NCBI RefSeq assembly: GCF_000354175.2
Contig: NC_022359.1
Coordinates: forward strand, 1,500,001-1,532,000
Direction: 5' to 3'
Source of the DNA: Vibrio alginolyticus NBRC 15630 = ATCC 17749
GTDB taxonomy: Bacteria > Pseudomonadota > Gammaproteobacteria > Enterobacterales > Vibrionaceae
DNA length: 32,000 nucleotides
In this document: in pieces, positions 4,809-31,094 of the stretch
How positions within the stretch are numbered: the stretch's first letter is position 1
How the letters are laid out: each line of letters starts with the position of its first letter
Notes under the pieces: generated by a model
The model's input: only the letters and a program-made list of their open reading frames with translations
Database searches by the model: none
What the model was told of the DNA's origin: nothing
Made by a program: the position numbers and the translations under genes

Positions 4809-4960
4809 CGGTGCTCGTTAAAGCATTCCACTTAACGATTGATAACGCCGAAACATCAGTCACAACAAGGATTATCACAACAATACAAATCAATGGGTTA
4901 GCTAAATTCGCGTGATTTCACTCTCCCTTTTTGCCACAAAAACTACACCCAAACTTAATA

Positions 4961-14421: not shown

Positions 14422-14443
14422 TAAGTGCCCCTCAACTGACAAT

Positions 14444-14454
14444 TTGTATTATTA
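14444..14454. promoter_or_regulatory. Predicted operator variant (site F) TTGTATTATTA
   Basis: The 15-mer TTGTATTATTATATA is identical to the reverse complement of site H at 20506. The right half has AT instead of AC. It lies 150 nt upstream of the porin start. Confidence 0.4.
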
Positions 14455-14815
14455 TATATTCAAAAGTGTTAGCTATGTCTGATTCTAAAACGACCTTTGT
14501 ATACATCACTTACAGAGAAATGTTTTAACTCGTTTCATATGATAAAGAAGAAGATTAAAAAAACATAAAAAACAATAAATTCAATAACTTAAAGCCAAAA
14601 ATCTTGACATAAAATCAAAATTCCCTTGCTAAATCACCTTTAGTTTTTGCTGTTCCTCTATAAAGAAAGCTGTCAACCTCATAAAGGTTCAGCTCTTATT
14701 GATGTTGATATTCAACTATTTTGTGTGACTTATTCATCACTTCAGTGAGCAATCATTGTATCTAGTGTGAGTCGGATCATTCTATTGATAAAACCATCTA
14801 GATGACAGAAATTAT

Positions 14816-14865: not shown

Positions 14866-16611
14866 ATGCAAGTAACAAAAATTGCAGCAGCAATTGCTAT
14901 TTCCACAGGTTTGTTAACCGGATGTAACACTGATTTAAGGGATGCACCATCGGCTCCCCCACCAACAGAAACTGAGTCTGAGTTGAGCCAAGGTATGTGG
15001 GATATTTCAACACCAGCCACTGTGGCGAAATCCGATGATGAGCACGACCTGCCAAACGTCTATGTCTTTGAAGACGGTACGCAAAAGTATTATAACGATG
15101 ATGATAACTTCGGTACTTACACAATCTACACTTCAACTTATACCGAAGATAAAGATACAGAGACGCTTACATTCAACCTTTATGACGAGAGCGATCTAAG
15201 TAACCCTACCGAGTTAACAGGGACTTATGAAGTTTCAAACGGCATGTTAACCATCTCAGGAACAAATGACGGAAACTTCACCGGTAACGATGAATCAGAA
15301 AACGATGCGGTGAAAGATGCAGTTGCAGCGGCAAATAATGACGCTGGCGATAACAACGTCGTACAAATTTTGGATACCAATAAAGGTGGAACAGAAGAAG
15401 ACACCGGTGAGTTACGAATCAAGCTGTCTGATTCAACGAGTGTTTCAGAAATTTCAACAGGCCGACTAACTGTAGATCTAACTTACCAGCATCATGAAGA
15501 AACAGAACAGGAAGCCGACGGTTCTGGTGACAATGCTTACATCTCATTTTATGCAGCAAAAACCTCGAATTCCAACTTGCATGGCGAAGTGGCATTTGAA
15601 AACGGCAAAATCAAATACCGCGATGCAAGTGGAAACTTGACGGAAACAGGCGACACGTTTGAGTTAGGTGAAAACCTCGCGATAGAAGTCAGTTGGGTAG
15701 AAAACTTCTTCTCTTTTTCGGTTAACGGTAAACAAATAGGTGAAATGTTACCTGTCGCTGATGGCACCGCTGTAACTTATGTATCACTGAGACTAGGTGA
15801 TAATGGCAACACTACAAACTTTGAATTAAATGCAGACAACTTGAAGATTTACTCTAGTGATTCGGGCTCTGAAGTGTTGGTTCTAGAAGAGGATTTTGAC
15901 AACTACATTCCAGGCTTAGACCTCGCGACAATTTACAACAGTGCATCAAGCGAAGCGGTTGTCATTTCAGACGGAAGTTCTAATCCTGATAAACCGTCAG
16001 AAGACGTGAGTGAAAACTTTGACTCATACCCAGTAGGAACAAATATCAGTTCAGCAAACTCTAGTTGGAAAGAATACAATACGGTTGCTGATGACTCCTC
16101 CACCTTGACGTCCGTGGCTGTAGTAAGTGATGATGTATCAAAGAGCGGCGCTAACTCTCTGCTAATATCCGACACAGATACGACCAACAAACCATACGTT
16201 ACGCGCGAGTTTTCAAACGGAGCAACATCAAACGGTAGCGTGTCATTCGATGTTTACATTCCGTCAGACAACGAAAAAACTACATACATTAATGTTGGCT
16301 CAGGTAAAAACAACTCAGATCGTTACTACGAATTGAGAATTTCGGGCAGTGGTAAAGTTGAAGCCGAAGCAGGATCAGATGACGTAGAAATAGGCACTAT
16401 TACGACTGACGCTTGGAACTCAATGTCCCTAGCTTGGGATGGTGATGAGATTAACGTTTCTATTAATGGAAAAACGGTTGATGCGCCAAGCCAGTCCGAA
16501 ACAGGCTTAGACGCAACGAATACACCATCACAACTGACTATTTATGTAGGGGACACAAGTGGTGCTTCAACAAAAGCATATTTCGATAACATCGATTCAA
16601 AGCAACTCTAG
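14866..16611 (+). CDS. Acidic surface lipoprotein of unknown function with repeated beta-sandwich (LamG/ConA-like) modules
   Basis: 581 aa with the lipobox LTGC and a D/E/S/T/N-rich composition. Two modules are each introduced by (E/D)xFDxY (EEDFDNY, SENFDSY). Each ends in a similar pattern (FSFSVNGKQIG...NADNLKIY and LAWDGDEINVSINGKTV...AYFDNID). No PL7 catalytic motifs are present. Confidence 0.8.
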   Translation: MQVTKIAAAIAISTGLLTGCNTDLRDAPSAPPPTETESELSQGMWDISTPATVAKSDDEHDLPNVYVFEDGTQKYYNDDDNFGTYTIYTSTYTEDKDTETLTFNLYDESDLSNPTELTGTYEVSNGMLTISGTNDGNFTGNDESENDAVKDAVAAANNDAGDNNVVQILDTNKGGTEEDTGELRIKLSDSTSVSEISTGRLTVDLTYQHHEETEQEADGSGDNAYISFYAAKTSNSNLHGEVAFENGKIKYRDASGNLTETGDTFELGENLAIEVSWVENFFSFSVNGKQIGEMLPVADGTAVTYVSLRLGDNGNTTNFELNADNLKIYSSDSGSEVLVLEEDFDNYIPGLDLATIYNSASSEAVVISDGSSNPDKPSEDVSENFDSYPVGTNISSANSSWKEYNTVADDSSTLTSVAVVSDDVSKSGANSLLISDTDTTNKPYVTREFSNGATSNGSVSFDVYIPSDNEKTTYINVGSGKNNSDRYYELRISGSGKVEAEAGSDDVEIGTITTDAWNSMSLAWDGDEINVSINGKTVDAPSQSETGLDATNTPSQLTIYVGDTSGASTKAYFDNIDSKQL

Positions 16612-18079: not shown

Positions 18080-19438
18080 TCAATCGTACATTAGCTTGTC
18101 TGCCTTATTAATATCGAAATCTTTCAGAGACTTACGTGCTAAATGCCTAAATGGCCATGCCTTAACAATTTCTTCAAACGGCATGATTGCAAACACCCAA
18201 AACACTGAAAGGTCCAAGTATAAAATCATCAAAGCACATAACGGTATTGAGATTACCCACTGACCGGTAAAGTTAATCTTAAACACCTCCGTTGTTTTAC
18301 CTAACGCTCTCAAAATATGACCATGAACGGTGTTATAGCCACGTACTATCGGTAGCAGTATGTAAAGTGGAGCAATCGCGGATAACGCTTTGTAAGTACT
18401 CGGGTCTAAGTCGGGATACAAATCAGGAAGAACGAAACTAAGTGCAAAAAAGAAAAATGCTGAAACGAACGAGATCATCACGGCCATATCAATACTAATA
18501 TCGACATTGTTACGCAGCTCATCCATTTTTCTTGATCCAATTGCTTGGCTAATCGTGATTGCCGATGAATGCGCCCAAGCAGTAATGAACTGAGTACCCG
18601 CTTTGATCCAAGGCATCACGATAGTCATAGCGACATAAGCATTTAAGGTCAGTTGCGAGTACAGCAACATGTATATCGTTGCGCCAGTTTGTAACATTGT
18701 GACGTTCGCCGCGACGGGGAAAATCTCTTTAAAATGCTTATGTATATTGCTTTTCAATGACGCATCAAGCTTCTTAATAGACAAGATGATAGAATCATCA
18801 AGCTTAATGCACATGGTTAAATATAACAGCCGAATACTAATAGCAACCAAACTACCCGCCGCGGCGCCTTGAACGCCAATACCTTCAAAATTAGTCAGGC
18901 CGTGAATCAGAACATAAGACATCGCCACGTTGACTGGCAATTCAATCAAATAGCCTTTAAATGGAACTTTGGTCCGTCCAAGCGCATTGAACACCGCAAT
19001 CATAACCTGAGTAATGGCATTGAATATGACGATGAACTTAGCAATTGCAAGGTAGCATTTTGTCTCCGCATAGAGATCAACGTTATCCGTCAACTTACTG
19101 ATTAACGCTTCATCAAAGACAGTAATCAACAGCCAGAATAAGGATGCGACTAGAACGTTGATAACTAAAGCTGCCCAGAAACCTTTATTTAACGATAGAT
19201 AATGACCAGAGCCTACGGCACGGCTAAGTACCAATTGAGACCCATTTGCTAGAGCCATTTGGATGCCTAAAACGAAAGAAACTATTGTTGTAGCAATCCC
19301 CATAGCAGCAAGTGAAACTTCACCTAATGGCGTAACAAGCAGCGTATCAATCATAAGCATTGATTGCATCAACAAAGCATTAAGAGCGAGCGGCCAAGCA
19401 AGAGATAAATTTTTCTTTATATATGGTTGGGAAAACAT
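18080..19438 (-). CDS. MATE-family efflux transporter
   Basis: 452 aa and about 12 TM segments. The N-terminus LSLAWPLALNALLMQSMLMIDTLLVTPLGEVSLAAMG is typical of the MatE/NorM family. The gene is 120 nt downstream of the GntR gene on the same strand. Confidence 0.85.
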   Translation of the reverse strand: MFSQPYIKKNLSLAWPLALNALLMQSMLMIDTLLVTPLGEVSLAAMGIATTIVSFVLGIQMALANGSQLVLSRAVGSGHYLSLNKGFWAALVINVLVASLFWLLITVFDEALISKLTDNVDLYAETKCYLAIAKFIVIFNAITQVMIAVFNALGRTKVPFKGYLIELPVNVAMSYVLIHGLTNFEGIGVQGAAAGSLVAISIRLLYLTMCIKLDDSIILSIKKLDASLKSNIHKHFKEIFPVAANVTMLQTGATIYMLLYSQLTLNAYVAMTIVMPWIKAGTQFITAWAHSSAITISQAIGSRKMDELRNNVDISIDMAVMISFVSAFFFFALSFVLPDLYPDLDPSTYKALSAIAPLYILLPIVRGYNTVHGHILRALGKTTEVFKINFTGQWVISIPLCALMILYLDLSVFWVFAIMPFEEIVKAWPFRHLARKSLKDFDINKADKLMYD

Positions 19439-19558
19439 TAGTAAACCTTTGTAATGAGGTTAAACGTTTAAACTAAAGAGCTCGGTCATTAGGCAAAGTT
19501 CATGACAAAAAGAAACGACAGAAAAATCTTTTTAGTCAATAAAGGTGTACGCAAGCTC

Positions 19559-20275
19559 TTAACTATTCACGGCGTCGGAAAGCCTCTGATTCTCATCATT
19601 TAACAGCGTTTGAGAGGCTAAACGAGCTTGAAATGAGTTTCCGACCATAATTGCATCATAAATTGCACGGTGCTCATTAAGGCAGAACCTCCCTCCTTCA
19701 ACTGACTTGTCAATAAACACCTTAAATATGGTCGAAAGTATATTGCTGAAGGGAACGTAGAATTGATTATCGGTACAAAGGAATATCGTTTGATGAAACA
19801 AATGATCGTTAGCAATCCACTCGTCATAATCGTGACATCGTGCTGCCATCGTCATTCTTTGAAATACAATTGACAACAGCTTTCTTTGCTCAGCATTGGC
19901 ATTTTGGGCTGCCAGCGCACACGCCTCTGGTTCTATGGCTTTACGCAATCCTAAAAACTGAGATAGAAACGGCTTAGTATCTTCTAAATCTTGGATCCAC
20001 TCTAAGAGTTGAGGATCAAGAAAATGCCAATAGTTTCTTGGTAGTACCGTAGTTCCAACTTTTGGTTTAGAGATAATTAAGCCTTTAGCAGACAGCAACT
20101 TCGTCGACTCTCGTAGTGCTGTCCGACTAACACCAAACAACTTACACAGTTCTATTTCACTCGGGAGCTTCTCATTTTGACTTAATTCTCCTGACAATAT
20201 TTTGCGAGAAATCTGTCTTGCTACTTGTACATGTATCTTGTGATTTGAATTCCCGAGAAGTGAAAACTCTGCCAT
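19559..20275 (-). CDS. GntR-family transcriptional regulator, FadR subfamily (FCD effector domain), paralog 1
   Basis: 238 aa with an N-terminal winged HTH (LPSEIELCKLFGVSRTALRESTKLLSAKGLIISKPKVGTTV) and an all-helical C-terminal domain. GAGGAA RBS. Confidence 0.92.
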   Translation of the reverse strand: MAEFSLLGNSNHKIHVQVARQISRKILSGELSQNEKLPSEIELCKLFGVSRTALRESTKLLSAKGLIISKPKVGTTVLPRNYWHFLDPQLLEWIQDLEDTKPFLSQFLGLRKAIEPEACALAAQNANAEQRKLLSIVFQRMTMAARCHDYDEWIANDHLFHQTIFLCTDNQFYVPFSNILSTIFKVFIDKSVEGGRFCLNEHRAIYDAIMVGNSFQARLASQTLLNDENQRLSDAVNS

Positions 20276-20505
20276 CTATATTCCTCATTGCCAGCAGCCT
20301 AAACGACTTGTTTAGCTAATAATTAGAAAAGGCCAAATGAAACACGCTTTGAAGGCGGAGACTTTCTGTGTAAATGTAAAGCACTGTTATTTAGCGTCTA
20401 AAATCTAACGATCTTATGAATATGATTTTTACTCGCGAGGTATATTGGCCAAACTCAATATTGAATGGTCGAGTAGTAACATCATGCACACCGATCTTTA
20501 GTATA

Positions 20506-20516
20506 TAATAATACAA
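20506..20516. promoter_or_regulatory. Predicted operator variant (site H), reverse complement TTGTATTATTA
   Basis: It lies in the 560-bp divergent region between the two GntR genes. It shares GATATTGTATTATTA with site J and a 15-mer with site F. Confidence 0.4.
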
Positions 20517-20804
20517 TATCACTTTATTTAACAAGAAACCTGATCTTCTATTCAAATTGTGTGCTGTGTATTGAAAATCAGTGAGTACAATAAGTAGGCG
20601 CGACTAGAGTTAACTAACATATTGAGCTAACAAATAAATAAGGAATGATGTAAGAATCGGTGGCCTCATCTGTTATACGCTAAGTATCATAATCATGAAG
20701 GCTTCATAAAGCAGTCGGAGACTCAAAATGGATTTGTGAAGACAGCTGTTATTACGTAAACATCTTCTTGGTGAGCTACACTTTGGATGATATAGTCCAA
20801 GCTT

Positions 20805-20815
20805 AAATAATACAA
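20805..20815. promoter_or_regulatory. Predicted operator variant (site I), reverse complement TTGTATTATTT
   Basis: It lies 21 nt upstream of the ATG of GntR paralog 2, a position consistent with autoregulation. Confidence 0.4.
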
Positions 20816-20835
20816 TTTTAACGATAAGTGATTTT

Positions 20836-21555
20836 ATGTCTGGTGAATTTCATTCTATCTCCGGTTCCAAGCGCAGCTTACATGTACAAGTAGCTCGCGA
20901 AATTGCTCGTAGCATTTTGTCAGGCAAGATCCCTCAAGGGTCCATTCTTCCAGGAGAAATGTCCCTGTGTGAACAGTTTGGTATCAGTCGCACAGCTTTG
21001 CGTGAAGCCGTAAAACTTTTAACATCAAAAGGTTTACTCGAGTCACGTCCAAAAGTTGGTACTCGAGTCATCAACCGAGCGTACTGGAACTTTTTAGACC
21101 CACAATTAATTGAATGGATGGACGGTCTAACAGAGATAGATCAGTTCTGTCATCAATTTTTGGGGTTACGACGCGCGATAGAGCCTGAAGCTTGTGCACT
21201 AGCAGCGAAAAATGCCACTGCGGAACAGCGAATTCAGCTATCAGAAGCATTCCAAGATATGTTGGAAGTCGCTAAAGCAGACGAACTGGACAAAGCGCGC
21301 TGGATGGATGTAGATATTCGTTTCCATAGCATTATTTTTAACTCAACCGGAAACGACTTTTTCTTACCGTTTGGGCATGTTCTGACTACAATGTTCATTA
21401 ACTTTATTGCTCACTCATCTGAGGAAGGCAATACGTGCATCGAAGAACATCGTGAGATTTATGAAGCAATAATGGCAGGCAATGCTGAAAAAGCACGTCA
21501 AGCTTCGGCTAACCACTTGTTGGAGTCAAAACATCGCTTACCCGAAGCCAGTTAA
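20836..21555 (+). CDS. GntR-family transcriptional regulator, FadR subfamily, paralog 2
   Basis: 239 aa, collinear with paralog 1. Matching blocks are LHVQVAREIARSILSG, FGISRTALREAVKLLTSKGLLESRPKVGTRV, LDPQLIEWM and LRRAIEPEACALAA. Confidence 0.92.
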   Translation: MSGEFHSISGSKRSLHVQVAREIARSILSGKIPQGSILPGEMSLCEQFGISRTALREAVKLLTSKGLLESRPKVGTRVINRAYWNFLDPQLIEWMDGLTEIDQFCHQFLGLRRAIEPEACALAAKNATAEQRIQLSEAFQDMLEVAKADELDKARWMDVDIRFHSIIFNSTGNDFFLPFGHVLTTMFINFIAHSSEEGNTCIEEHREIYEAIMAGNAEKARQASANHLLESKHRLPEAS

Positions 21556-21586: not shown

Positions 21587-21613
21587 AAAAGCACGCATCT
21601 CGCGTGCTTTTTT
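21587..21613 (+). terminator. Rho-independent terminator after GntR paralog 2
   Basis: Stem AAAAGCACGC/GCGTGCTTTT with a 5-nt loop and a T-run. Confidence 0.75.
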
Positions 21614-21663
21614 AATTTCGTTTCCTCCAATTCTTTATGGCACACCATCAATATTTTGATATA

Positions 21664-21674
21664 TAGTAATACAA
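21664..21674. promoter_or_regulatory. Predicted GntR/FadR-type operator (site K) TAGTAATACAA
   Basis: It fits TNGTNNNACNA. It lies 24 nt upstream of the ATG of the nucleotidyltransferase gene and downstream of the preceding terminator. Confidence 0.45.
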
Positions 21675-21697
21675 ATGTATTTTGAGAATGTTGTGTT

Positions 21698-23560
21698 ATG
21701 ACCGACTCGCTACTGCCAAATATCATACAGTTTATCAGCCAGATTGATCCGTTTGACAAGGTACCTAAAGGTGCACTTCGCGAGCTTGCTTCATCTGTTA
21801 AGATCACTTATTTAAGCAAGGGGGATGTTGTTGATCAATGTTCTTCTAAGAACGAAAAGTCACTTTATATTATTAGAACTGGCTCTATCGAACAGCGTAA
21901 ATCTGATGGCATATTGAGAGCTAAACTTGGTCCGGAAGATTTGTTTGGCTTCACTTTTCTTGGTAACGAAGTCGAAAGCGGGAAAGAATACAAAGCAATT
22001 GCAATCGAAAATTCATTAGTTTATGTAATTCCAAATGCTGCGCTGAAAAAGTTGTGCACTTCTCATCCTGAATGTGCTGAACATTTTGCATCACAAGCTC
22101 AGGTACGGCTAAAGTCAGCATTAGATGTCGTGTGGTCTAACAAAGAAAAAGGGTTGTTTATTCGGCGTGTAGAGGAAGTTGCTAGTGGTCGAGTTGCAAT
22201 TGTAACCGCTGAGCAATCCATTCAGTCAGTCGCCAACGAGATGATCGATAAGTGCTCTCCCTGCGCTGTCGTTTATCGTGATAAAAAAATAGTTGGACTG
22301 ATTACCGACCGAGATATGACAAAGCGAGTCATCGCCAAAGGATTAAGCATCTCAACACCAGTCGTCGAAGTCATGTCGCCTGATCCTAAAACAATTCATC
22401 CTGACGATTTAGTTCTGCACGCAGCCTCCATTATGATGCAGCACAACATAAGAAATTTACCCCTAGTCAGAGACAATAACGTCGTTGGCGTTTTGACAAC
22501 AACGCACTTGGTTCAAAACCATCGAGTCCAAGCAATATTTTTAATTGAAAAGATCAAATATGCTGGCAGTGTCAAAGCTTTGTCTAGTTTTACGTCTGAG
22601 CGCCAAGCTATTTTTGAAGCATTAGTCGAAGGACGGGTTTCACCAGAAATCATTGGTAAAGTGATGACCATGATTATGGATGCGTACACTCGTAGGTTAA
22701 TACAAATAGCCATTGATAAGTTGGGAACACCTCCCTGTGACTTCTCTTGGATTGTGGCAGGCTCTCATGCTCGCCAAGAAGTACATATGCTGTCAGATCA
22801 AGATAGCGCCATCGTATTAGATGATTCGGCAACAGATAACGACCGTATCTACTTCAAACATTTAGCAATGATAGTAAGTAATGGCCTGAATAAATGTAAC
22901 TATCCATTGTGTCCAGGGAAGTTTATGGCAGCGACCCCTAAATGGTGCCAGCCTCTCTCTGTTTGGAAAAAGTACTATAAGAAATGGGTGGCAAATCCTG
23001 AATACGAGCGCCTCCTCAATATCAGTGTCTTTTTAGAAATCCGAACCGTTTATGGAAACAAAGACTTTGAACAGATACTTCGCGATGAGCTTCACTCTAA
23101 CATCAACGCTAATAGAGAATTCCTTACGATGTTAGTTAACGATGCGGTGAAAACAAACCCACCGTTAGGAATATTCAATAGCCTAGTATTACAAAAATCG
23201 GGAGAGAACAAGAAAACGCTCGACGTAAAAAAACACGCGATTAATCTAATCATTGATCTTGCAAGGATTTATGGTCTGGCAGTTGAATGTGACCTCACTG
23301 CAACTGATGAGCGTTTTAAAGCAGCTAACGAAAAAGGACTGCTCAGCCATGACGCGTACAAAAATATAATAAACGCATATCAATTCATCTTGTCGTTTCG
23401 ATTTGCCCATCAATTAGAAGCACTAAAAAGTGGAGATGAGCCAAATAACCACATTGACCCCAATACGTTCGGTAGTTTTGAACGTCAACATTTAAAAGAC
23501 GCGTTCCGCATCATTGCAGATCTACAAGAAGTCGCCAAACTCCGTTTTGGGAGCCGATAA
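21698..23560 (+). CDS. Putative signal-sensing nucleotidyltransferase: cNMP-binding domain, two CBS domains, DUF294 Pol-beta-type NTase and a C-terminal helical domain
   Basis: 620 aa. It has an N-terminal cNMP-binding-like block (FDKVPKGALRELA...YIIRTGSIEQRK...GPEDLFGF). Two CBS repeats follow (IVGLITDRDMTKRVIA and VVGVLTTTHLV). The NTase signature G-S-x(n)-D-x-D reads AGSHARQEVHMLSDQDSAIV. Confidence 0.85.
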   Translation: MTDSLLPNIIQFISQIDPFDKVPKGALRELASSVKITYLSKGDVVDQCSSKNEKSLYIIRTGSIEQRKSDGILRAKLGPEDLFGFTFLGNEVESGKEYKAIAIENSLVYVIPNAALKKLCTSHPECAEHFASQAQVRLKSALDVVWSNKEKGLFIRRVEEVASGRVAIVTAEQSIQSVANEMIDKCSPCAVVYRDKKIVGLITDRDMTKRVIAKGLSISTPVVEVMSPDPKTIHPDDLVLHAASIMMQHNIRNLPLVRDNNVVGVLTTTHLVQNHRVQAIFLIEKIKYAGSVKALSSFTSERQAIFEALVEGRVSPEIIGKVMTMIMDAYTRRLIQIAIDKLGTPPCDFSWIVAGSHARQEVHMLSDQDSAIVLDDSATDNDRIYFKHLAMIVSNGLNKCNYPLCPGKFMAATPKWCQPLSVWKKYYKKWVANPEYERLLNISVFLEIRTVYGNKDFEQILRDELHSNINANREFLTMLVNDAVKTNPPLGIFNSLVLQKSGENKKTLDVKKHAINLIIDLARIYGLAVECDLTATDERFKAANEKGLLSHDAYKNIINAYQFILSFRFAHQLEALKSGDEPNNHIDPNTFGSFERQHLKDAFRIIADLQEVAKLRFGSR

Positions 23561-24276
23561 TGAAGCGCTTACTTGAGTACTTTCATCCATTGACACGAAA
23601 AAATCGTCAGAGACAAAAGCACTATAAAAAGAAGCACATCCCTCTTTATCTTAAAAAGCTGCTTCGCTCGCCAAATCTGGACGTAAATCAACGAGCTTTT
23701 GACACTGAGTTCATCGTTCTAGATCTTGAAACAACTGGCTTAGACAGTGAGGAAGAAGTCATTCTTTCCATGGGCTGGGTAGAGATTCGACAAGGCCATA
23801 TTGACTTAGCAACAAGCCAACACCTTTATGTACATAGCGACTCAAAAATTAAGCCCGAAACCATAGTTGTTAACCATATTACCCAACAAATGCTGACTGA
23901 TGGAATCTCTATTCATGAAGCAATGCGGACATTCTTTAAAGCAGCAGAAAACAAAGTTATTGTTGCGCACGGATGTATAGTCGAAACTAGCTTTATTAAT
24001 CAATATTTACAGCGAGTTTTCAACATAAAAGAGTTGCCGCTCATTTGGATAGACACCTTGCGAATAGAAAAAAGGTTACAAAGAGCTATCAATGCTTCCG
24101 ATGAATCAGATGTGACTCTAGCAGCGACAAGGGAACGTTACGGGTTACCCGCTTACAACGGCCATAATGCACTTGCAGATGCAATTGCAACTGCAGAGTT
24201 ACTATTAGTTCAACAAACCCGTATCGCACCTCAGACAAACGCGACAGTCGGGCCCCTTTATCGGCTTAGCCTGTAA
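23560..24276 (+). CDS. DEDDh-type 3'-5' exonuclease (DnaQ/epsilon-like domain)
   Basis: 238 aa. Exo I is FIVLDLETTGLD and Exo III is GHNALADAIATAEL (H-x4-D). The start codon overlaps the upstream stop (TAATG), which implies translational coupling. Confidence 0.85.
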   Translation: MKRLLEYFHPLTRKNRQRQKHYKKKHIPLYLKKLLRSPNLDVNQRAFDTEFIVLDLETTGLDSEEEVILSMGWVEIRQGHIDLATSQHLYVHSDSKIKPETIVVNHITQQMLTDGISIHEAMRTFFKAAENKVIVAHGCIVETSFINQYLQRVFNIKELPLIWIDTLRIEKRLQRAINASDESDVTLAATRERYGLPAYNGHNALADAIATAELLLVQQTRIAPQTNATVGPLYRLSL

Positions 24277-24349
24277 TCATCCAGATCACAGGCCTATTTG
24301 CTAAACATGTTCTCTGTCACAATTTGGTATCATCAGCATTTACCTTAAT

Positions 24350-24360
24350 TAATAATACAA
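24350..24360. promoter_or_regulatory. Predicted operator variant (site J), reverse complement TTGTATTATTA
   Basis: The reverse complement reads AATGATATTGTATTATTAATT. It shares 14-15 nt with sites E and H. It lies 74 nt downstream of the exonuclease stop, in a long spacer. Confidence 0.4.
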
Positions 24361-24636
24361 TATCATTAATGGAGCGACGTTAGCAAAATGCAGCGAATAG
24401 CCATTGTCACTTGCCAACATCAGAGCGAGTGTAAACTGATTAGTTGCTCCATATCATAACTACATTTTAGAGAGCTTAGCATTGCATGTGCGCAATGATT
24501 GTCGAAGATCTAGCAGTGTTACATAAACAACCGAATTCAGGTGATGTCCCCTCGAACGTCATCTTCAGTGGTTAGTAATCATGTAAAGCCGCTGTTGCGA
24601 ACTTCAGCCGACAGCTCGCGGTACTAGTACCGTTTG

Positions 24637-24671
24637 GCCCATGCAGTACAGGCTTGCATGGGCTTTTTTTT
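24637..24671 (+). terminator. Strong orphan Rho-independent terminator in an intergenic spacer
   Basis: Perfect 9-bp stem GCCCATGCA/TGCATGGGC with a 9-nt loop and T8. A 14-nt perfect palindrome CGGTACTAGTACCG (24619..24632) precedes it. It is 360 nt from the nearest upstream stop codon. Confidence 0.8.
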
Positions 24672-24823
24672 AACAATCCTACATCAATCGATGTTAAATC
24701 CCTCTGCCAGATATGCATAAATCCGCGTCCATTCTTATTAGAGGACTTAAGATTCTTTATAAGTATATTCATAGAACCCATACCTAAACTCTACACTTTT
24801 AGCAGCTTCAGAGAAAAGCAATA

Positions 24824-24839
24824 TCTGACACCGATCACT
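24824..24839. promoter_or_regulatory. Possible CRP-binding site
   Basis: TCTGACACCGATCACT, which reads TCTGA-N6-TCACT and matches 4 of 5 in each half-site. Confidence 0.3.
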
Positions 24840-24892
24840 TGTATGATTAATTAAAGGGTTTATTACGCCTTACTGGTCACGGTTTTGAGTTA

Positions 24893-24903
24893 TTGTACTA
24901 CAA
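24893..24903. promoter_or_regulatory. Predicted GntR/FadR-type operator (site L) TTGTACTACAA
   Basis: Its core is identical to site A. It lies 59 nt upstream of the second symporter ATG (site A is 63 nt upstream of the first). Confidence 0.55.
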
Positions 24904-24961
24904 ATAAGAGGGGCGAACGTTACTATTACTTGGGACAATAAACTACTTCAAAGGTCTAAAG

Positions 24962-26743
24962 ATGGAACTCAATACTCTCATTGTGGGCATCTATTTTCTA
25001 TTCTTAATCGCAATAGGTTGGATGTTCAGAACTTTTACTAGTACTACAAGCGACTACTTCCGAGGTGGCGGCAACATGCTTTGGTGGATGGTTGGAGCAA
25101 CGGCATTTATGACTCAATTCTCTGCTTGGACATTTACTGGCGCCGCTGGTAAAGCCTACAATGATGGTTTTGCTGTCGCTATTATTTTCCTTGCAAACGC
25201 GTTTGGTTACTTCATGAACTTCGCTTACTTTGCACCGAAATTTCGTCAGTTACGCGTCGTAACTGTCATAGAAGCCATTCGTATGCGTTTTGGTACAACA
25301 AACGAACAAGTATTTACATGGTCTTCGATGCCAAACAGTGTTGTCTCTGCAGGTGTATGGCTTAACGCTCTTGCTATTATAGCTTCAGGTATTTTTGGTT
25401 TTGATATGACAGCAACCATCTGGATTACCGGTTTAGTTGTACTTGCGATGTCGGTAACTGGCGGCTCTTGGGCGGTTATCGCCTCCGATTTCATGCAAAT
25501 GGTCATCATCATGGCGGTAACGATCACATGTGCAGCCGTTGCTATTGTTCAAGGTGGTGGCGTTACTGAAATTATCTCTAACTTCCCAGTCGCAGAAAGT
25601 GGCAGCTTTGTTGCAGGTAACAACCTGAACTACTTAAGCATCTTTAGTATTTGGGCGTTCTTTATCTTCGTTAAGCAGTTCTCTATTACAAACAATATGT
25701 TGAACTCTTACCGTTACCTAGCTGCAAAAGACTCTAAAAATGCAAAAAAAGCAGCTTTGCTAGCATGTGTATTGATGCTGGGTGGGGTTTTCATTTGGTT
25801 CATGCCTTCTTGGTATATTGCAGGCCAAGGGGTTGATTTAGCGGCAGCTTATCCAGATGCTGGTAACAAAGCAGGCGACTTCGCGTACCTATACTTCGTT
25901 CAAGAGTACATGCCAGCAGGTATGGTTGGACTTCTGGTCGCTGCAATGTTTGCTGCTACGATGTCCTCTATGGACTCTGGTCTTAACCGCAATTCAGGTA
26001 TTTTCGTAAAGAACTTTTATGAACCGATCGTTCGTAAAGGCCAAGCATCAGAGAAAGAGCTAGTCGCAGTTTCTAAAGCAACATCGGCGGTATTTGGCGT
26101 TGCAATTATTCTAATCGCGCAGTTTATAAACTCTCTAAAAGGTCTGAGTCTATTCGACACTATGATGTACGTTGGTGCGCTCATCGGATTCCCAATGACA
26201 ATTCCAGCGTTTTTAGGCTTCTTTATCAAGAAAACTCCAGACTGGGCAGGTTGGGGAACTCTAGTCGTGGGTGGCATCGTTTCCTACCTTGTTGGGTTTG
26301 TTATCACAGCTGATATGGTGTCATCGGCGTTTGGCCTTGAGGAGTTGACTAGCCGAGAATGGTCTGATGTGAAAGTAGCAATAGGTCTAATCGGACACAT
26401 GACGCTAACTGGTGGCTTCTTCATGTTGTCGACTCTATTCTACAAGCCTCTAACTGACAAACGTCAAGCAGATGTCGATAAGTTCTTTGAAAACCTATCA
26501 ACGCCTCTTGTAGCGGAATCAGTGGCACAGAAAAAACTCGATAACAAGCAACGTCAAATGCTGGGTAAACTTATCGCGGTCGCAGGTATAGGTGTCATGT
26601 TTATGGCTCTGCTACCTAACCCAGTATGGGGGCGCTTAGTGTTTATTCTATGTGGTGCCATCGTCGGAGGTGTTGGTCTACTACTCGTAAAAGCTGTGGA
26701 TTCAAGCGCTGAACAAGCCTCTGAACCTGTGACAGAAAGTTAA
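24962..26743 (+). CDS. Sodium:solute symporter family transporter, paralog of 388..2145
   Basis: 593 aa, collinear with the first symporter from N- to C-terminus. Example blocks are SDYFRGGGNMLWWMVGATAFMTQFSAWTFTGAAG and MPAGMVGLL.AAMFAATMSSMDSGLNRN. Confidence 0.9.
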   Translation: MELNTLIVGIYFLFLIAIGWMFRTFTSTTSDYFRGGGNMLWWMVGATAFMTQFSAWTFTGAAGKAYNDGFAVAIIFLANAFGYFMNFAYFAPKFRQLRVVTVIEAIRMRFGTTNEQVFTWSSMPNSVVSAGVWLNALAIIASGIFGFDMTATIWITGLVVLAMSVTGGSWAVIASDFMQMVIIMAVTITCAAVAIVQGGGVTEIISNFPVAESGSFVAGNNLNYLSIFSIWAFFIFVKQFSITNNMLNSYRYLAAKDSKNAKKAALLACVLMLGGVFIWFMPSWYIAGQGVDLAAAYPDAGNKAGDFAYLYFVQEYMPAGMVGLLVAAMFAATMSSMDSGLNRNSGIFVKNFYEPIVRKGQASEKELVAVSKATSAVFGVAIILIAQFINSLKGLSLFDTMMYVGALIGFPMTIPAFLGFFIKKTPDWAGWGTLVVGGIVSYLVGFVITADMVSSAFGLEELTSREWSDVKVAIGLIGHMTLTGGFFMLSTLFYKPLTDKRQADVDKFFENLSTPLVAESVAQKKLDNKQRQMLGKLIAVAGIGVMFMALLPNPVWGRLVFILCGAIVGGVGLLLVKAVDSSAEQASEPVTES

Positions 26744-27093: not shown

Positions 27094-27720
27094 TTACTTA
27101 GGTACACTATTTTCTCTTTTTGCAGATGGCACAACAACCGCTACCAATAAAGCTAACAGCAGGAACACAGGGCTAAGCATTAATCCATGCCAGATTGAAT
27201 ACCCATCATGGAACAGCCAGAATATACCAAGCGTCAGTAGGTACGAAAAGTAGCTGCAAAACACCAAGCTAATCGCGACAAAGCGCTTTTGATTAATAAT
27301 AAGAATCCGCACTAGATACTGGCTAAGAATACCAGAGCAGCGCATGGCAAGTTGCCAATTAATGATAAAGAAAGCAAGCGCAATAAACCCAGCTACGACC
27401 AGTGCATCATGCGTGCTTAAAATGAAGTAGCTACCAAATCGGCTTATGATGACCGGATAATCGCCTTCGTATATCGTTGACCAAGATATTGCGTTCGCTG
27501 CTGCTACGTAATTGGCAAAATAAGCAATAGCGTAGAAAGTCGTTTGAGAACTGAACGGCTGAAATACATCCCTACAAAATCCTCGCCATTCTTCTTTGTT
27601 GGCGGTAGGCCCTACCCAGTCACGTTTTTTTGGGGCGGTACGCCCGGCAAACGCAGGCCCGTTGCGAAACAACAGCCAAAATATATAGAGTGCAAGTATA
27701 ACCAAGAGTATTGAAAACAT
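27094..27720 (-). CDS. Integral membrane protein of unknown function
   Basis: Preferred start is ATG 27720, because the 5 codons before it spell a strong RBS (AGGGGGAAGGG); this gives 208 aa. The protein has several long hydrophobic segments. I recognise no motif. Confidence 0.7.
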   Translation of the reverse strand: MFSILLVILALYIFWLLFRNGPAFAGRTAPKKRDWVGPTANKEEWRGFCRDVFQPFSSQTTFYAIAYFANYVAAANAISWSTIYEGDYPVIISRFGSYFILSTHDALVVAGFIALAFFIINWQLAMRCSGILSQYLVRILIINQKRFVAISLVFCSYFSYLLTLGIFWLFHDGYSIWHGLMLSPVFLLLALLVAVVVPSAKRENSVPK

Positions 27721-28046
27721 ACCCTTCCCCCTCATAAATTATCGGCGCCACTGCCAATGGCGTTGGGGTCGTAAACTGCACTTCCCTGCTATACCTATTT
27801 GATTTATCAAAGACTTATTATTTTATTACCACCAAAATTCATTTAATGGCATGCTAAACAGCAACATTTTCACGCTTTGTGCGTGAAGTTCGAAAGCCTA
27901 CTTTTAGGTTTAGCACAAAAATAACTACAGCAAAGCGTAAGAGAGGGATTCCTCACCCATCAATGAAGATGAGGCGTTAAGCAGAAGCTGCGACCGCAAT
28001 GAGAAGAGAAGGATTCAAAGCGGTCATGCATGGGCGAGAAGAGCAA

Positions 28047-28367: not shown

Positions 28368-28940
28368 AACTTCTCCATAATCACTTCCACTTGAGCACCA
28401 CCTACTTTGGATAAGCTCAAGGACTGCCGAGGGTATACATTTGTAATGCCGTCACCCTACCTTGATTCCACTCAGTTGGGAAGAAGTTATGCATTCTCAT
28501 AAGGTCGAGGCTTCGAGCACAACAAAAATTTGCAATTCATCATATAGCAACTGTTTGAGTTGATTCATTAATAATGACTCACTTTGTCAAATTTTACAGC
28601 CAAATTTTGTTGCAAATATGTTTCATTAACCAGTAATTAAATTCGAGTTTAAAAATACCACCAACAAAATGGCAGCATATTACTCTGCAAAATCAGGGTG
28701 TAAGCAAAACTTTACTACTGAGCGAAAGTCAAAATGAAGCATAATTTAACAATTTGTTTACACTTATTGTATCTGGCTATACCACGATTTAGTTAGAGGG
28801 TTAGATACAGAAAAGCCTTTCTCTGTATCTTGCGGTGAAATAGTCGCAGCGATGTTATCGACAAATAGTTTAAGGGACGAACAGATGCCTACCGCTATCG
28901 AAAGCACACGCAACCTTAGGTATGGCCTTTGCGCTGATAT

Positions 28941-28975
28941 CAGAGTTTGAGTACCCATACAAACTCTGGTTTTGT
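28941..28975 (+). promoter_or_regulatory. Terminator/attenuator-like hairpin in the leader of the 2-oxoacid dehydrogenase operon
   Basis: Perfect 9-bp stem CAGAGTTTG/CAAACTCTG with a 10-nt loop, followed by GTTTTGT. It lies about 50 nt upstream of the E1alpha ATG. Confidence 0.35.
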
Positions 28976-29023
28976 ATGAACAGCTGCAGTCCAAAAGACC
29001 CGCAGCGTCAAAAGGAGCTTGAG

Positions 29024-30118
29024 ATGAACGTTCAGGCATTACCCATGCATCGGTTTATCGACCATCGTGGGGACCTAGTCGGCCAACTACCCAACTGGGC
29101 TGACACTGAAACATTGGTCGGGTTTTACCGAGATATGGTATTAACTCGCACTTACGACAACAAAGCAGTTGCCTTGCAACGCACCGGTAAGCTAGGGACC
29201 TATCCCTCACACTTAGGCGCGGAAGCCATAGGCATTGCGGTCGGCAGAGCACTTAAAGCCGATGATGTGTTTGTCCCTTACTACCGCGATATGCCTGCGA
29301 TGTGGTGTCGTGGCATTGGCATGGAAAAGAACCTTCAATACTGGGGTGGCGATGAGCGCGGGAGTGATTTTGCTCCTGAAGGCAGTCCGGTTCCTAGCCG
29401 AGACCTTCCCTACTGTGTACCCATAGCGACGCAATGTACGCATGCTGTCGGGGTGGCTTCCGCGCTAAAAATTCAAGGTAACCATGAAGCTGCGCTAGTC
29501 ATGTGCGGCGATGGTGGTACATCCAAAGGGGACTTTCTTGAGTCAATAAACTGCGCAGGTACTTGGAATATTCCACTTGTTTTCGTCGTAAACAATAACC
29601 AATGGGCAATTTCAGTGCCGCGTAGTCTCCAATGTGCCGCCGATTTCTTATCAGAAAAAGCGCAAGGTGCAGGTATACCGGGTATTACTGTCGATGGTAA
29701 CGATGTCGTCGCCGTTTATGATGCAACTAAAACCGCCCTTGAGAGAGCAAGAAAAGGGAAAGGCGCAACACTCATCGAAGCGGTGAGTTACCGACTGAGT
29801 GACCACACTACGGCCGATGATGCGACTCGTTATCGTAAAGAAGATGATGTTCAAACTGCATGGCAATACGAACCTATCGCACGTCTTAAAACGTACCTCC
29901 TTAATCAAGACGCTTGGAGCGACGAACAAGAACAGCAATGGCTAGATTACTGTAAAGAGCAAGTAGAGTTAGCTGTTGAACGCTATCTGAGCTTACCGCC
30001 ACAAGCACCAGAAACCGGTTTCGATTATTTGTATGAATCGCTACCTCAAGAGCTTCATGCACAAAGAGATGAACTCATCAACAAGGCAATGAGAATGCAG
30101 GGAGGCAGACATGGCTGA
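29024..30118 (+). CDS. 2-oxoacid dehydrogenase E1 component alpha subunit (heterotetrameric PDH/BCKDH type, TPP-dependent)
   Basis: The ORF track starts at 28922. ATG 29024 behind AAGGAG is preferred, giving 364 aa. The TPP-binding motif reads GDGGTSKGDFLESINCAGTWNIPLVFVVNNNQWAIS. Confidence 0.9.
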   Translation: MNVQALPMHRFIDHRGDLVGQLPNWADTETLVGFYRDMVLTRTYDNKAVALQRTGKLGTYPSHLGAEAIGIAVGRALKADDVFVPYYRDMPAMWCRGIGMEKNLQYWGGDERGSDFAPEGSPVPSRDLPYCVPIATQCTHAVGVASALKIQGNHEAALVMCGDGGTSKGDFLESINCAGTWNIPLVFVVNNNQWAISVPRSLQCAADFLSEKAQGAGIPGITVDGNDVVAVYDATKTALERARKGKGATLIEAVSYRLSDHTTADDATRYRKEDDVQTAWQYEPIARLKTYLLNQDAWSDEQEQQWLDYCKEQVELAVERYLSLPPQAPETGFDYLYESLPQELHAQRDELINKAMRMQGGRHG

Positions 30119-31094
30119 GCTAACGTTGGTTGAAGCAGTAAACCTTGCCCTGCACCACGAAATGCAACAAGACCCCAATGTTGTCGTACTAGGTGAAGAC
30201 GTGGGCGATAATGGTGGTGTATTTCGTGCCACTGTTGGACTCAAGCAAGAGTTTGGTCTTAAACGAGTCATCGATACGCCACTCGCTGAAGCCTTAATCG
30301 GCGGGGTTGCGGTCGGTATGGCAACGCAAGGATTACGACCTGTCGCCGAATTTCAGTTTCAAGGTTTCGTTTTTCCTGCGATGGAGCACTTAATGTGCCA
30401 CGCGGCTCGAATGCGTAACAGAACTCGCGGTCGGCTCACTTGTCCCGCGGTTTTTCGTGCGCCATTTGGCGGCGGTATCCACGCTCCGGAACACCACTCA
30501 GAAAGCGTGGAAGCGCTATTTGCTCACACTGCTGGATTTAAAGTGGTGATTCCTTCTTCTCCACAACGCGCATACGGCTTACTTCTCGCTGCAATTAGAA
30601 GCAATGATCCCGTCATGTTCTTCGAACCGAAGCGCATATATCGCACCGTTAAATCTGAAGTCGTCGATAACGGCGAAGCACTCCCACTCGACACCTGCTT
30701 CACCTTACGTAAGGGGCGAGATATCACGCTCGTTACTTGGGGCGCATGCGTCGTAGAGTCACTTCAGGCCGCGCAAACCTTGTCTAGTCAGGGAATTGAA
30801 GTCGAGGTGATTGATTTGGCGAGTATTAAGCCAATTGATACCGCGACGATTTTCAGCTCACTAGAAAAAACTGGACGTTTACTCGTTGTTCATGAAGCGA
30901 GTAAAACTTGTGGTGTGGGCTCTGAGCTATTAGCTCGAACCGCTGAACATGCCATGTGCTTACTTAAAGCCCCACCTAAACGAGTAACTGGAATGGACAC
31001 CATTATGCCTTATTACCGTAACGAAGATTATTTCATGGTTCAGGAAGAAGACATTGTGACCGCGGCGCGCGAACTCGTGGAGGATTGGAAATGA
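30111..31094 (+). CDS. 2-oxoacid dehydrogenase E1 component beta subunit
   Basis: 327 aa with a transketolase-like pyrimidine-binding block (VVVLGEDVGDNGGVFRAT, IDTPLAE) and a C-terminal domain. The start overlaps the E1alpha stop by 8 nt. Confidence 0.92.
   Translation: MAELTLVEAVNLALHHEMQQDPNVVVLGEDVGDNGGVFRATVGLKQEFGLKRVIDTPLAEALIGGVAVGMATQGLRPVAEFQFQGFVFPAMEHLMCHAARMRNRTRGRLTCPAVFRAPFGGGIHAPEHHSESVEALFAHTAGFKVVIPSSPQRAYGLLLAAIRSNDPVMFFEPKRIYRTVKSEVVDNGEALPLDTCFTLRKGRDITLVTWGACVVESLQAAQTLSSQGIEVEVIDLASIKPIDTATIFSSLEKTGRLLVVHEASKTCGVGSELLARTAEHAMCLLKAPPKRVTGMDTIMPYYRNEDYFMVQEEDIVTAARELVEDWK

Follow-up and report, generated by a model that had tools for sequence, protein, structure and literature searches.

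A sensor nucleotidyltransferase and exonuclease gene pair in the alginate locus of Vibrio alginolyticus: a known module in a new regulon and its possible role in Na+-coupled uptake

The DNA analysed here is a stretch of 32,000 nucleotides from Vibrio alginolyticus NBRC 15630 = ATCC 17749 (contig NC_022359.1, positions 1,500,001 to 1,532,000 of the forward strand), referred to below as the window, and the subject of this study is a pair of adjacent genes in it that encode a sensor nucleotidyltransferase (NTase) and a DnaQ-like DEDDh exonuclease. The window is an alginate-utilisation locus, carrying genes for two SSF symporters, Eda, KdgK, two PL17-like and three PL7 lyases, the porin KdgM, a MatE protein and two divergent GntR/FCD regulators, and no acs, actP or DUF4212 gene was found in it. 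The pair lies between GntR paralogue 2 and the second symporter, where an earlier note on this DNA, made from the sequence alone, had placed it and where the open reading frames (ORFs) and Pfam matches confirm it. The genes concerned and the layout of the NTase protein, including its cyclic-nucleotide-binding-like (CNB-like) domain, are as follows (positions in the window).

20836-21555, + strand: GntR/FCD regulator, paralogue 2 (gntR2; Pfam), the most conserved neighbour of the pair
21698-23560, + strand: sensor NTase, ORF of 620 aa (ORF list, Pfam)
NTase protein: CNB-like domain, residues ~12-137; CBS pair, ~157-275; DUF294, 303-436; DUF294_C helical domain, 474-617
23560-24276, + strand: DnaQ-like DEDDh 3'-5' exonuclease, ORF of 238 aa (ORF list, Pfam RNase_T)
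24962-26743, + strand: SSF (Na+/solute) symporter SSF2 (Pfam SSF, 144 bits)

The junction of the two genes reads GGAGCCGATAATG, in which the TAA stop codon of the NTase gene (23558-23560) overlaps the ATG of the exonuclease gene (23560-23562), and a GGAG Shine-Dalgarno sequence is located 6 nt upstream of this ATG. The TAATG overlap indicates that the exonuclease gene is translationally coupled to the NTase gene. In the NTase, the matches to DUF294 (PF03445, residues 303-436, 141.3 bits against a gathering cut-off of 21) and DUF294_C (PF10335, residues 474-617, 143.1 bits against 22.5) are strong, the two CBS domains score 65.5 bits, and the match of residues 53-123 to cNMP_binding is marginal (31.6 bits against a cut-off of 27.5). 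The presence of an N-terminal CNB-like domain and a CBS pair within one protein of ~620 aa corresponds to the COG2905-type architecture. The exonuclease matches RNase_T over residues 52-215 (74.7 bits), and the window proteins are 99% identical to Vibrio alginolyticus database entries. Both ORFs, their domains and the overlapping junction are thus as the earlier note had described them.

The catalytic residues of the NTase are well conserved. Among 50 homologues, down to 27% identity, the signature G355-S356...D367-Q368-D369 is invariant and R359 likewise, and the third carboxylate, at position 447, is an Asp in 44 of the sequences and a Glu in the other six; the earlier note had made its proposal depend on such conservation in the orthologues. 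Besides CBS and CNB structures, the best Foldseek matches in the PDB of the AlphaFold2 (AF2) model (pLDDT 85.8) include the AMPylation domain of DrrA (6yx5_B, E = 9.2e-8, TMt 0.68) and both domains of GlnE (3k7d and 1v4a, E about 1.5e-7), with which the Pfam clan assignment of DUF294_C (KNTase_C clan) agrees. The top 50 structural matches of the NTase module contain neither a CCA-adding enzyme nor a poly(A) polymerase, and no match to the Pfam families GlnE or GlnD_UR_UTase was found in the NTase at E<=0.01. The modelled fold is consistent with GlnE-like nucleotidylylation chemistry, which is in line with the comparison to GlnD and GlnE made before. GlnE, GlnD and DrrA/SidM likewise combine a Pol-beta-type NTase core having G-S...D-x-D with a helical domain of the KNTase_C clan, whereas the window protein has just one NTase module, to which CNB-like and CBS sensors are fused. 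The architecture is rigid across the NTase family, in which no informative domain fusions (Rosetta-stone clues) were found.

As to the sensor part, the CNB-like domain is homologous to E. coli CRP (hhalign probability 91.7%, E = 7.9e-7). The equivalents of CRP Glu72 and Arg82 are the cyclic-nucleotide contacts in CAP and PKA; in the NTase these positions are Phe85 and Ser94, and both columns are unconserved in the 50 homologues. In addition, many members of the NTase family score under the Pfam threshold for cNMP_binding, and the best PDB sequence matches of the N-terminal region are the CNB-homology domains of KCNH channels, which are not known to bind cyclic nucleotides. Judging from these residues and matches, the 'cNMP-sensing' function that the protein had been given is not supported. 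The CBS pair, for its part, retains the G-x-x-T-D-R-D ribose-phosphate motif and matches adenine-nucleotide-binding CBS proteins in both sequence and structure searches, including AcuB solved with AMP/ADP, so that adenylate sensing by this part of the protein is plausible.

The exonuclease also has its active site intact, with the Exo I, II and III motifs (D-x-E, D and H-x4-D) represented by D55, E57, H137/E142, H202 and D207. In 91 exonuclease sequences, D55, E57 and H137 are invariant, and H202 and D207 occur in 90, the remaining row being gapped. At the Exo II acid the usual Asp is replaced by Glu142 (87 E and 4 D in the same set), and this Glu is, as judged from the alignment, a signature of the exonuclease family. 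Another family-specific character is an N-terminal extension of ~45 aa, the pattern of which is conserved across distant members and which is modelled as confident helices (AF2 model, pLDDT 92.6, pTM 0.91). The best PDB sequence match is 2p1j (E = 1e-17), and in Foldseek searches the protein is closest to DinG-exo, PolC-exo, a CRISPR-associated DnaQ domain, Pol III epsilon and ExoX, then to RNase T. Some database records name it 'DNA polymerase III subunit epsilon', but it stays under all curated NCBIfam cut-offs (dnaQ_proteo, 54.4 vs 222.7; PRK05711, 53.5 vs 196; PRK09146, 132.9 vs 266; PRK09145, 95.5 vs 189). The DEDDh fold and the catalytic residues are common to this enzyme and to DnaQ/Pol III epsilon, PolC-exo, DinG-exo and ExoX; the main differences are the Exo II Glu, the helical extension and the genetic partner, which is a sensor NTase here and a polymerase or helicase for the DnaQ-type enzymes. 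An anti-phage defence function was considered and rejected, since the NTase has no PADLOC match and the exonuclease matches generic DEDDh models only.

A genome scan, which sampled the close clade, revealed close relatives in 181 species, of which the best 80 loci (58-87% identity) were retained and annotated with the window's own proteins. These loci belong to about nine genera, namely Vibrio, Aliivibrio, Photobacterium, Shewanella, Psychromonas, Agarivorans, Motilimonas, Alginatibacterium and Reinekea. The exonuclease gene is directly downstream of the NTase gene in 77 of the 80 loci, mostly with an overlap of 1 or 4 nt, and alginate genes are present within 10 kb of the pair in 74. A GntR/FCD gene is located directly upstream on the same strand in 60 of the 74 loci in which this could be evaluated. 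An SSF gene is found within 10 kb in 52 of the 80 loci, at a median distance of about 2.8 kb and rarely adjacent; the tight linkage to the symporter put forward earlier does not hold for this clade, the tightest link of which is to the upstream GntR gene. The loci of Shewanella and V. mediterranei, looked up independently with Pfam-annotated neighbours, have the same arrangement. No discussion of the pair in alginate loci was found in our literature search.

Several other observations were made on these loci. In the V. algivorus group, represented by three Vibrio genomes (L065, L066 and L076 in our numbering; L066 is chromosome 2 of Vibrio algivorus SA2), the exonuclease gene is detached and placed directly after SSF2, separated from the NTase gene by 4.6-8 kb containing KdgM and SSF2 genes and, in L066 and L076, also LamG and PL7 genes. 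The detached exonuclease is 36-37% identical to that of the window, the NTase of the same genomes 67%. Across the species, the exonuclease has a median identity to the window protein of 51%, compared with 74% (NTase), 78% (GntR2) and 82% (SSF2); it evolves much faster than the NTase and the neighbouring genes, and the identities of exonuclease and NTase are correlated (r = 0.91). The gene order MatE(-), GntR1(-), GntR2(+), NTase, exonuclease is kept in 33 of the 80 species loci (window 18080-21555; loci L007-L086), and the MATE efflux gene is a stable, if unexplained, component of these and other alginate loci. The published description of the alginate locus of Vibrio sp. C42 lists its MATE gene as 'not apparently related'.

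The following signals around the pair and elsewhere in the window were predicted by terminator and promoter scans and with an operator weight matrix, which was built solely from sites upstream of NTase orthologues in other species.

21587-21611, + strand: terminator-like hairpin after gntR2 (terminator scan)
21656-21683, + strand: promoter-like -35/-10 pair TTGATA-16-TATTTT upstream of the NTase gene (promoter scan)
21656-21680, + strand: operator motif TTGATATATAGTAATACAAATGTAT upstream of the NTase gene, overlapping the promoter-like elements (weight matrix, 15.8 bits)
21668-21681, + strand: palindrome AATACAAATGTATT, in the promoter-like stretch 21656-21683
20498-20522, + strand: operator copy in the gntR1/gntR2 intergenic region, overlapping the promoter-like site 20485-20512 (18.8 bits)
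14438-14462, - strand: strongest operator copy, 60-84 nt upstream of the KdgM porin gene (26.6 bits)
24636-24664, + strand: terminator-like hairpin with 11 pairs and T8, ~360 nt past the exonuclease stop (terminator scan)

The hairpin after gntR2 implies that the pair has its own promoter, and considering both flanking hairpins and the promoter-like site, the pair looks like a bicistronic unit of its own, separate from SSF2. The operator matrix finds just three sites above 12 bits in the window, at the kdgM, gntR1/gntR2 and NTase promoters. Four weaker matches are located at 2330, 4762, 4955 and 24342; three of them are intergenic in the alginate locus, and that at 4955 is in the first PL17 lyase ORF, shortly after its annotated start (4931). 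In total there are seven matches above 6 bits, compared with 1.8 in shuffles, and the copies mark the promoter regions of kdgM, gntR, NTase, SSF1 and kdgK/PL17. The motif is conserved upstream of the NTase orthologue in 37 of the 80 species loci, and many Vibrio species keep the form TATATAATAATAC(A/T)AAT at 25-45 nt before the NTase start; elsewhere in other species the motif precedes gntR2, gntR1, kdgM, PL17, PL7 and SSF genes. Its core, TTGTAATACAA or ATAATAATACAA, fits T-x-G-T-N3-A-C-x-A, the GntR/FadR pattern, and GntR paralogue 2 is likely to be the reader of this operator. The operator-like site that had been noticed upstream of the pair is thus real as a conserved motif, while the exact palindrome AATACAAATGTATT is not significantly repeated (8 matches at <=3 mismatches vs 5.8 expected) and was rejected as a repeated operator. 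What is new here is an alginate clade of the pair, with a GntR/FadR-type operator common to other promoters of the locus.

Between the exonuclease and SSF2 genes there is a non-coding gap of 685 nt (24277-24961) without any ORF longer than 69 aa. It contains a promoter-like site (24339-24366) that overlaps the weak operator copy at 24342-24366 (8.6 bits), and the terminator at 24636-24664. Its RNA folding z-score is -2.35, and a search of the flanking non-coding regions against Rfam gave nothing above chance. In V. harveyi and V. jasicida, the region ahead of SSF2 has two parts of this gap conserved, 24441-24522 and 24819-24961. The gap is a candidate for a small RNA (sRNA) or an attenuating leader of the symporter gene.

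Beyond the alginate clade, the NTase family comprises 1544 clusters (50% identity, E<=1e-30), and nearly all of the best 150 listed are proteins of ~600-650 aa with end-to-end matches. To sample metagenomes, a degenerate DNA pattern for the invariant NTase motif was used and the first 120 matches were taken, an arbitrary set with many incomplete contigs; all 120 loci contain DUF294, and the exonuclease gene follows that of the NTase in 66 of the 100 evaluable loci. After the loci had been collapsed to 56 lineages at 60% identity, an SSF gene was found within 2 kb of the pair in 22 lineages and a betaine/choline/carnitine transporter (BCCT) gene in three, one of which is a marine clade of 24 members. 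The immediate upstream neighbour is SSF in 14 of 88 cases, BCCT in nine, an RND pump in four and an amino-acid permease in two, whilst directly downstream there is a BCCT gene in 10 of 89 cases and an SSF gene in four. Counted per 100 kb, SSF genes number 8.6 up to 2.5 kb from the pair and 1.5 further out, a 6-fold drop in density. The recurring SSF association claimed in the earlier note is therefore real and enriched. A distant homologue of the exonuclease (37% identity) is again paired with DUF294. The loci looked at individually include the following arrangements.

L087, L092 and L217: DUF4212-SSF-NTase-exonuclease(-acs) operons, acetate loci
Allochromatium (locus look-up): NTase-exonuclease-acs
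Longibacter: acs nearby
L094 (Photobacterium GCA_004104355.1, paralogue of 43% identity): SSF-NTase-exonuclease in a myo-inositol catabolic cluster
L096 (Logan SRR28602243 contig, paralogue of 46% identity): GntP-NTase-exonuclease-SSF, then zwf-pgl-gnd

Since the substrates of these transporters differ, what the loci have in common is Na+-coupled secondary transport; the LeuT fold is found in SSF, BCCT and APC transporters alike. The family-wide context supports the link to transporters inferred earlier and widens it. Some details of these loci deserve mention. The inositol cluster of L094 contains genes for Aldedh, a TPP enzyme, GFO_IDH_MocA, PfkB+DUF2090, AP_endonuc_2, KduI and an RpiR-type regulator. 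The marine clade (members at >=60% identity; L097, L100, L104, L106, L113 and ~20 more metagenome loci) consistently adjoins the BCCT gene, with the layout BCCT-NTase-exonuclease on one strand or with BCCT convergent with the exonuclease gene.

The relatives in Pseudomonas are known from genetic work. Pflu5625 of P. fluorescens is a member of the CrbS/R regulon, and its deletion is without phenotype (PMC5715377). In P. putida, PP_0354 (NTase) and PP_0353 (exonuclease) form an operon bound directly by ErdR (PMC9927547), and in P. aeruginosa PA3232-PA3235, including yjcH-actP, are co-induced ~16-fold on propionate (PMC9765439). A 2026 preprint places the P. putida operon among the genes most strongly dependent on ErdR, calls its function unclear and suggests protein modification and energy sensing (10.64898/2026.09.07.749794). 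On pyruvate, deletion of the exonuclease gene in P. putida impairs growth like that of actP-I or yjcH, while deletion of the NTase gene has little or no effect (10.64898/2026.09.07.749794; PMC9927547). From this literature and from loci L087, L088, L092 and L217, the statement of the earlier note that such pairs stand beside acs/actP loci is correct; the phrase 'undescribed system', in contrast, must be given up, as published work on Pseudomonas already describes the pair, reports its deletion and identifies it as a direct target of ErdR. The window pair is a new regulon's member of a known, biochemically uncharacterised module.

Comparison with the acetate pairs of Pseudomonas (PP_0354/PP_0353, PA3233/PA3232 and Pflu5625) shows the same CNB-like/two CBS/DUF294/DUF294_C protein and RNase_T-type exonuclease in the same operon order, and the window NTase is ~30-34% identical to the broad family. 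The main difference is in the genetic surroundings. The Pseudomonas pair under CrbS/R (MxtR/ErdR) is often beside yjcH-actP (SSF) or acs, while the window pair is in an alginate locus, where the partner symporter has no DUF4212 or YjcH small subunit, unlike in the acetate loci. Moreover, the acetate pair is preceded by the CrbR 'ACTU' inverted repeat (the consensus was compared by eye), whereas the window pair is preceded by a GntR/FCD gene and the GntR/FadR-type operator. From the operator sites we infer that the pair belongs to a GntR-controlled alginate regulon, which would replace the CrbR control of the acetate version.

Considering all of this, we tentatively favour, as a reading that may be right but that we hold with reserve, that the two enzymes form an opposing module which adds and removes a nucleotide, is controlled by adenylates via the CBS domains and modulates symporter-dependent uptake. 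The NTase would attach a nucleotidyl group, either one NMP or a short chain, to a hydroxyl belonging to a protein or a 3' end, with its activity set by adenylate ligands on the CBS pair, and the exonuclease would take this group off again. The level of the mark or signal would restrain uptake via the neighbouring symporter, here the alginate-type SSF, and the import of a rapidly catabolised carboxylate would thereby be matched to the energy state of the cell. SSF2 is accordingly a candidate functional partner or target of the module. The antagonism of the two enzymes is suggested by the asymmetry of the P. putida deletions on pyruvate, which is as expected if the product of the NTase is inhibitory and the exonuclease removes it. 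Also in favour are the intact catalytic sites of both enzymes, their near-constant pairing in the clade, the regulon membership, the adjacency to transporters (with the exonuclease gene moved to directly behind SSF2 in three Vibrio genomes), and the structural and CBS matches described above. The eraser candidate here is a separate DEDDh exonuclease, in contrast to the second NTase domain of GlnE, the HD domain of GlnD and the PP2C-like protein SidD. Another known system offers a likeness for the control: in B. subtilis AcuABC, the CBS-pair protein AcuB, which the CBS pair of the window matches, is encoded beside acs and helps to set a reversible covalent modification by adenylates; that modification, however, is lysine acetylation by a GNAT acetyltransferase and a deacetylase, without NTase or exonuclease.

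A number of points weigh against this interpretation. The two folds disagree on the substrate, that of the NTase pointing to protein hydroxyls and that of the exonuclease to nucleic-acid 3' ends. Both folds could be reconciled if the product were a short nucleotide chain primed by a protein, or else a free oligonucleotide signal. On propionate, both P. putida deletions lower growth (10.64898/2026.09.07.749794), contrary to what a simple inhibitor/eraser scheme would give. As to the genetic context, a terminator and 685 nt lie between the pair and SSF2 in the window, and in the clade the symporter gene is usually 2-7 kb off and separately transcribed. In the metagenome sample, about one third of the family members are without an adjacent exonuclease gene and about 60% of the lineages without SSF within 2 kb; two of the loci looked up individually have neither a transporter nor acs nearby. 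In Psychromonas sp. SA13A (L095), a DUF294 paralogue of 40% identity stands alone without exonuclease and is followed by an RND pump (MFP and AcrB-type), and the alginate locus of Vibrio sp. C42, with an SSS transporter, has been described without the pair. Psychromonas also carries the alginate-type pair.

Among the other explanations, we regard as possible, yet unlikely, that the products are a second-messenger pair, in which the NTase makes a free or tyrosine-primed short oligo(deoxy)nucleotide that binds and gates the transporter or a regulator and the exonuclease degrades it. The precedent is Hailong, where a Tyr-primed oligo-dA made by the NTase HalB keeps a membrane channel closed and an exonuclease flips the state (review PMC13434031). 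This would bring the protein-AMPylator-like fold of the NTase into agreement with a nucleic-acid exonuclease, it suits the DnaQ-like character of the latter, which is closest to DNA-directed DEDDh enzymes, and the position of the pair beside membrane transport proteins, and the P. putida asymmetry fits an inhibitory signal. However, the likeness to HalB/HalA is a works-like analogy only and is the sole footing of this explanation, as no homology to the window pair is detectable; there is no sequence relationship to HalB or the CD-NTases and, as said, no PADLOC match. Moreover, Hailong is an anti-phage system with a phage-encoded exonuclease and an ion channel as partner, in place of which the window has a symporter; the alignment of 50 homologues has no invariant Tyr as a possible primer, and SSF and BCCT transporters are not known to carry a receptor domain. 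A still less probable explanation, weaker than the add/remove pair, is that the NTase adds non-templated nucleotides to the 3' end of a specific RNA, for instance an sRNA, a transporter mRNA or the leader of the latter, and that these are trimmed by the exonuclease, which would set RNA stability or translation in the way the CCA-adding enzyme and RNase T act on tRNA ends. The RNase_T domain of the exonuclease and its matches to RNase T structures are in its favour, as are the 685-nt region before SSF2 with its promoter-like site, operator-like motif and intrinsic terminator, and the action of the P. putida module in trans on ActP-dependent phenotypes. Against it, the NTase is closest to protein AMPylators, with CCA-adding enzymes and poly(A) polymerases missing from its top 50 matches, and has no RNA-binding domain, and the 685-nt region is without Rfam match, has a modest z-score and is partially conserved.

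The version of the earlier note, a cAMP/cGMP-responsive regulator that ties cyclic-nucleotide signalling to the alginate transporter, is improbable: the marginal Pfam match and the CRP homology given above speak for it, but the contact residues of CRP are replaced and unconserved, many family members fall below the Pfam threshold, and by sequence the best matches in the PDB are the KCNH domains. Least probable of all, and scarcely to be expected, is a passenger or housekeeping pair, an accessory of DNA repair or proofreading without tie to alginate or transport. The epsilon naming in some records, the mild deletion phenotypes in Pseudomonas and the Vibrio alginate locus described without the pair would agree with it. 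It is opposed by the occurrence of the pair in alginate loci of 74 of 80 species in about nine genera, by the operator that the pair has in common with the locus, by the direct control of the Pseudomonas pair by ErdR, of which it is among the most dependent genes, and by the dnaQ_proteo score far below the cut-off for true epsilon subunits.

The significance of the pair is that the DUF294-exonuclease module, which is very widespread and strongly regulated in acetate metabolism, has also been taken up, with different regulators, into transporter loci for alginate and inositol and into those of the gluconate type and the betaine type. The question narrows from "acetate metabolism" to "control of Na+-coupled uptake". 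For the opposing add/remove module, the genetic prediction is that an exonuclease deletion is defective and that this defect is suppressed by deletion of the NTase gene. If this reading is true, it would explain how the uptake of abundant carboxylates is throttled in marine heterotrophs and could reveal a new reversible nucleotidyl modification or signal; when alginate utilisation is engineered with pathways from Vibrio, this pair may act as a brake on uptake that goes unnoticed. A more far-reaching idea, rather doubtful at present, sees the pair as a housekeeping switch of general use to Na+-coupled LeuT-fold transporters (SSF, BCCT), in which a nucleotidyl mark placed by the NTase, or an oligonucleotide that it makes and that is possibly protein-primed, gates the transporter according to adenylate status and the exonuclease erases it. 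If true, it would add a new class to the known ways of controlling transporters reversibly, with either the first 'de-nucleotidylylase' of the DEDDh type or the first counterpart outside defence to oligonucleotide gating as in Hailong.

A few other genes of the window were also observed. A multi-pass membrane protein of 213 aa (27094-27735, - strand) is without Pfam match. A protein of 581 aa (14866-16611, + strand) has a weak LamG-like match only, and it recurs beside KdgM in the alginate loci of other species. Overlapping genes for the alpha and beta subunits of a 2-oxoacid dehydrogenase E1 are located at 28922-31094 (+ strand), where the alginate locus ends.

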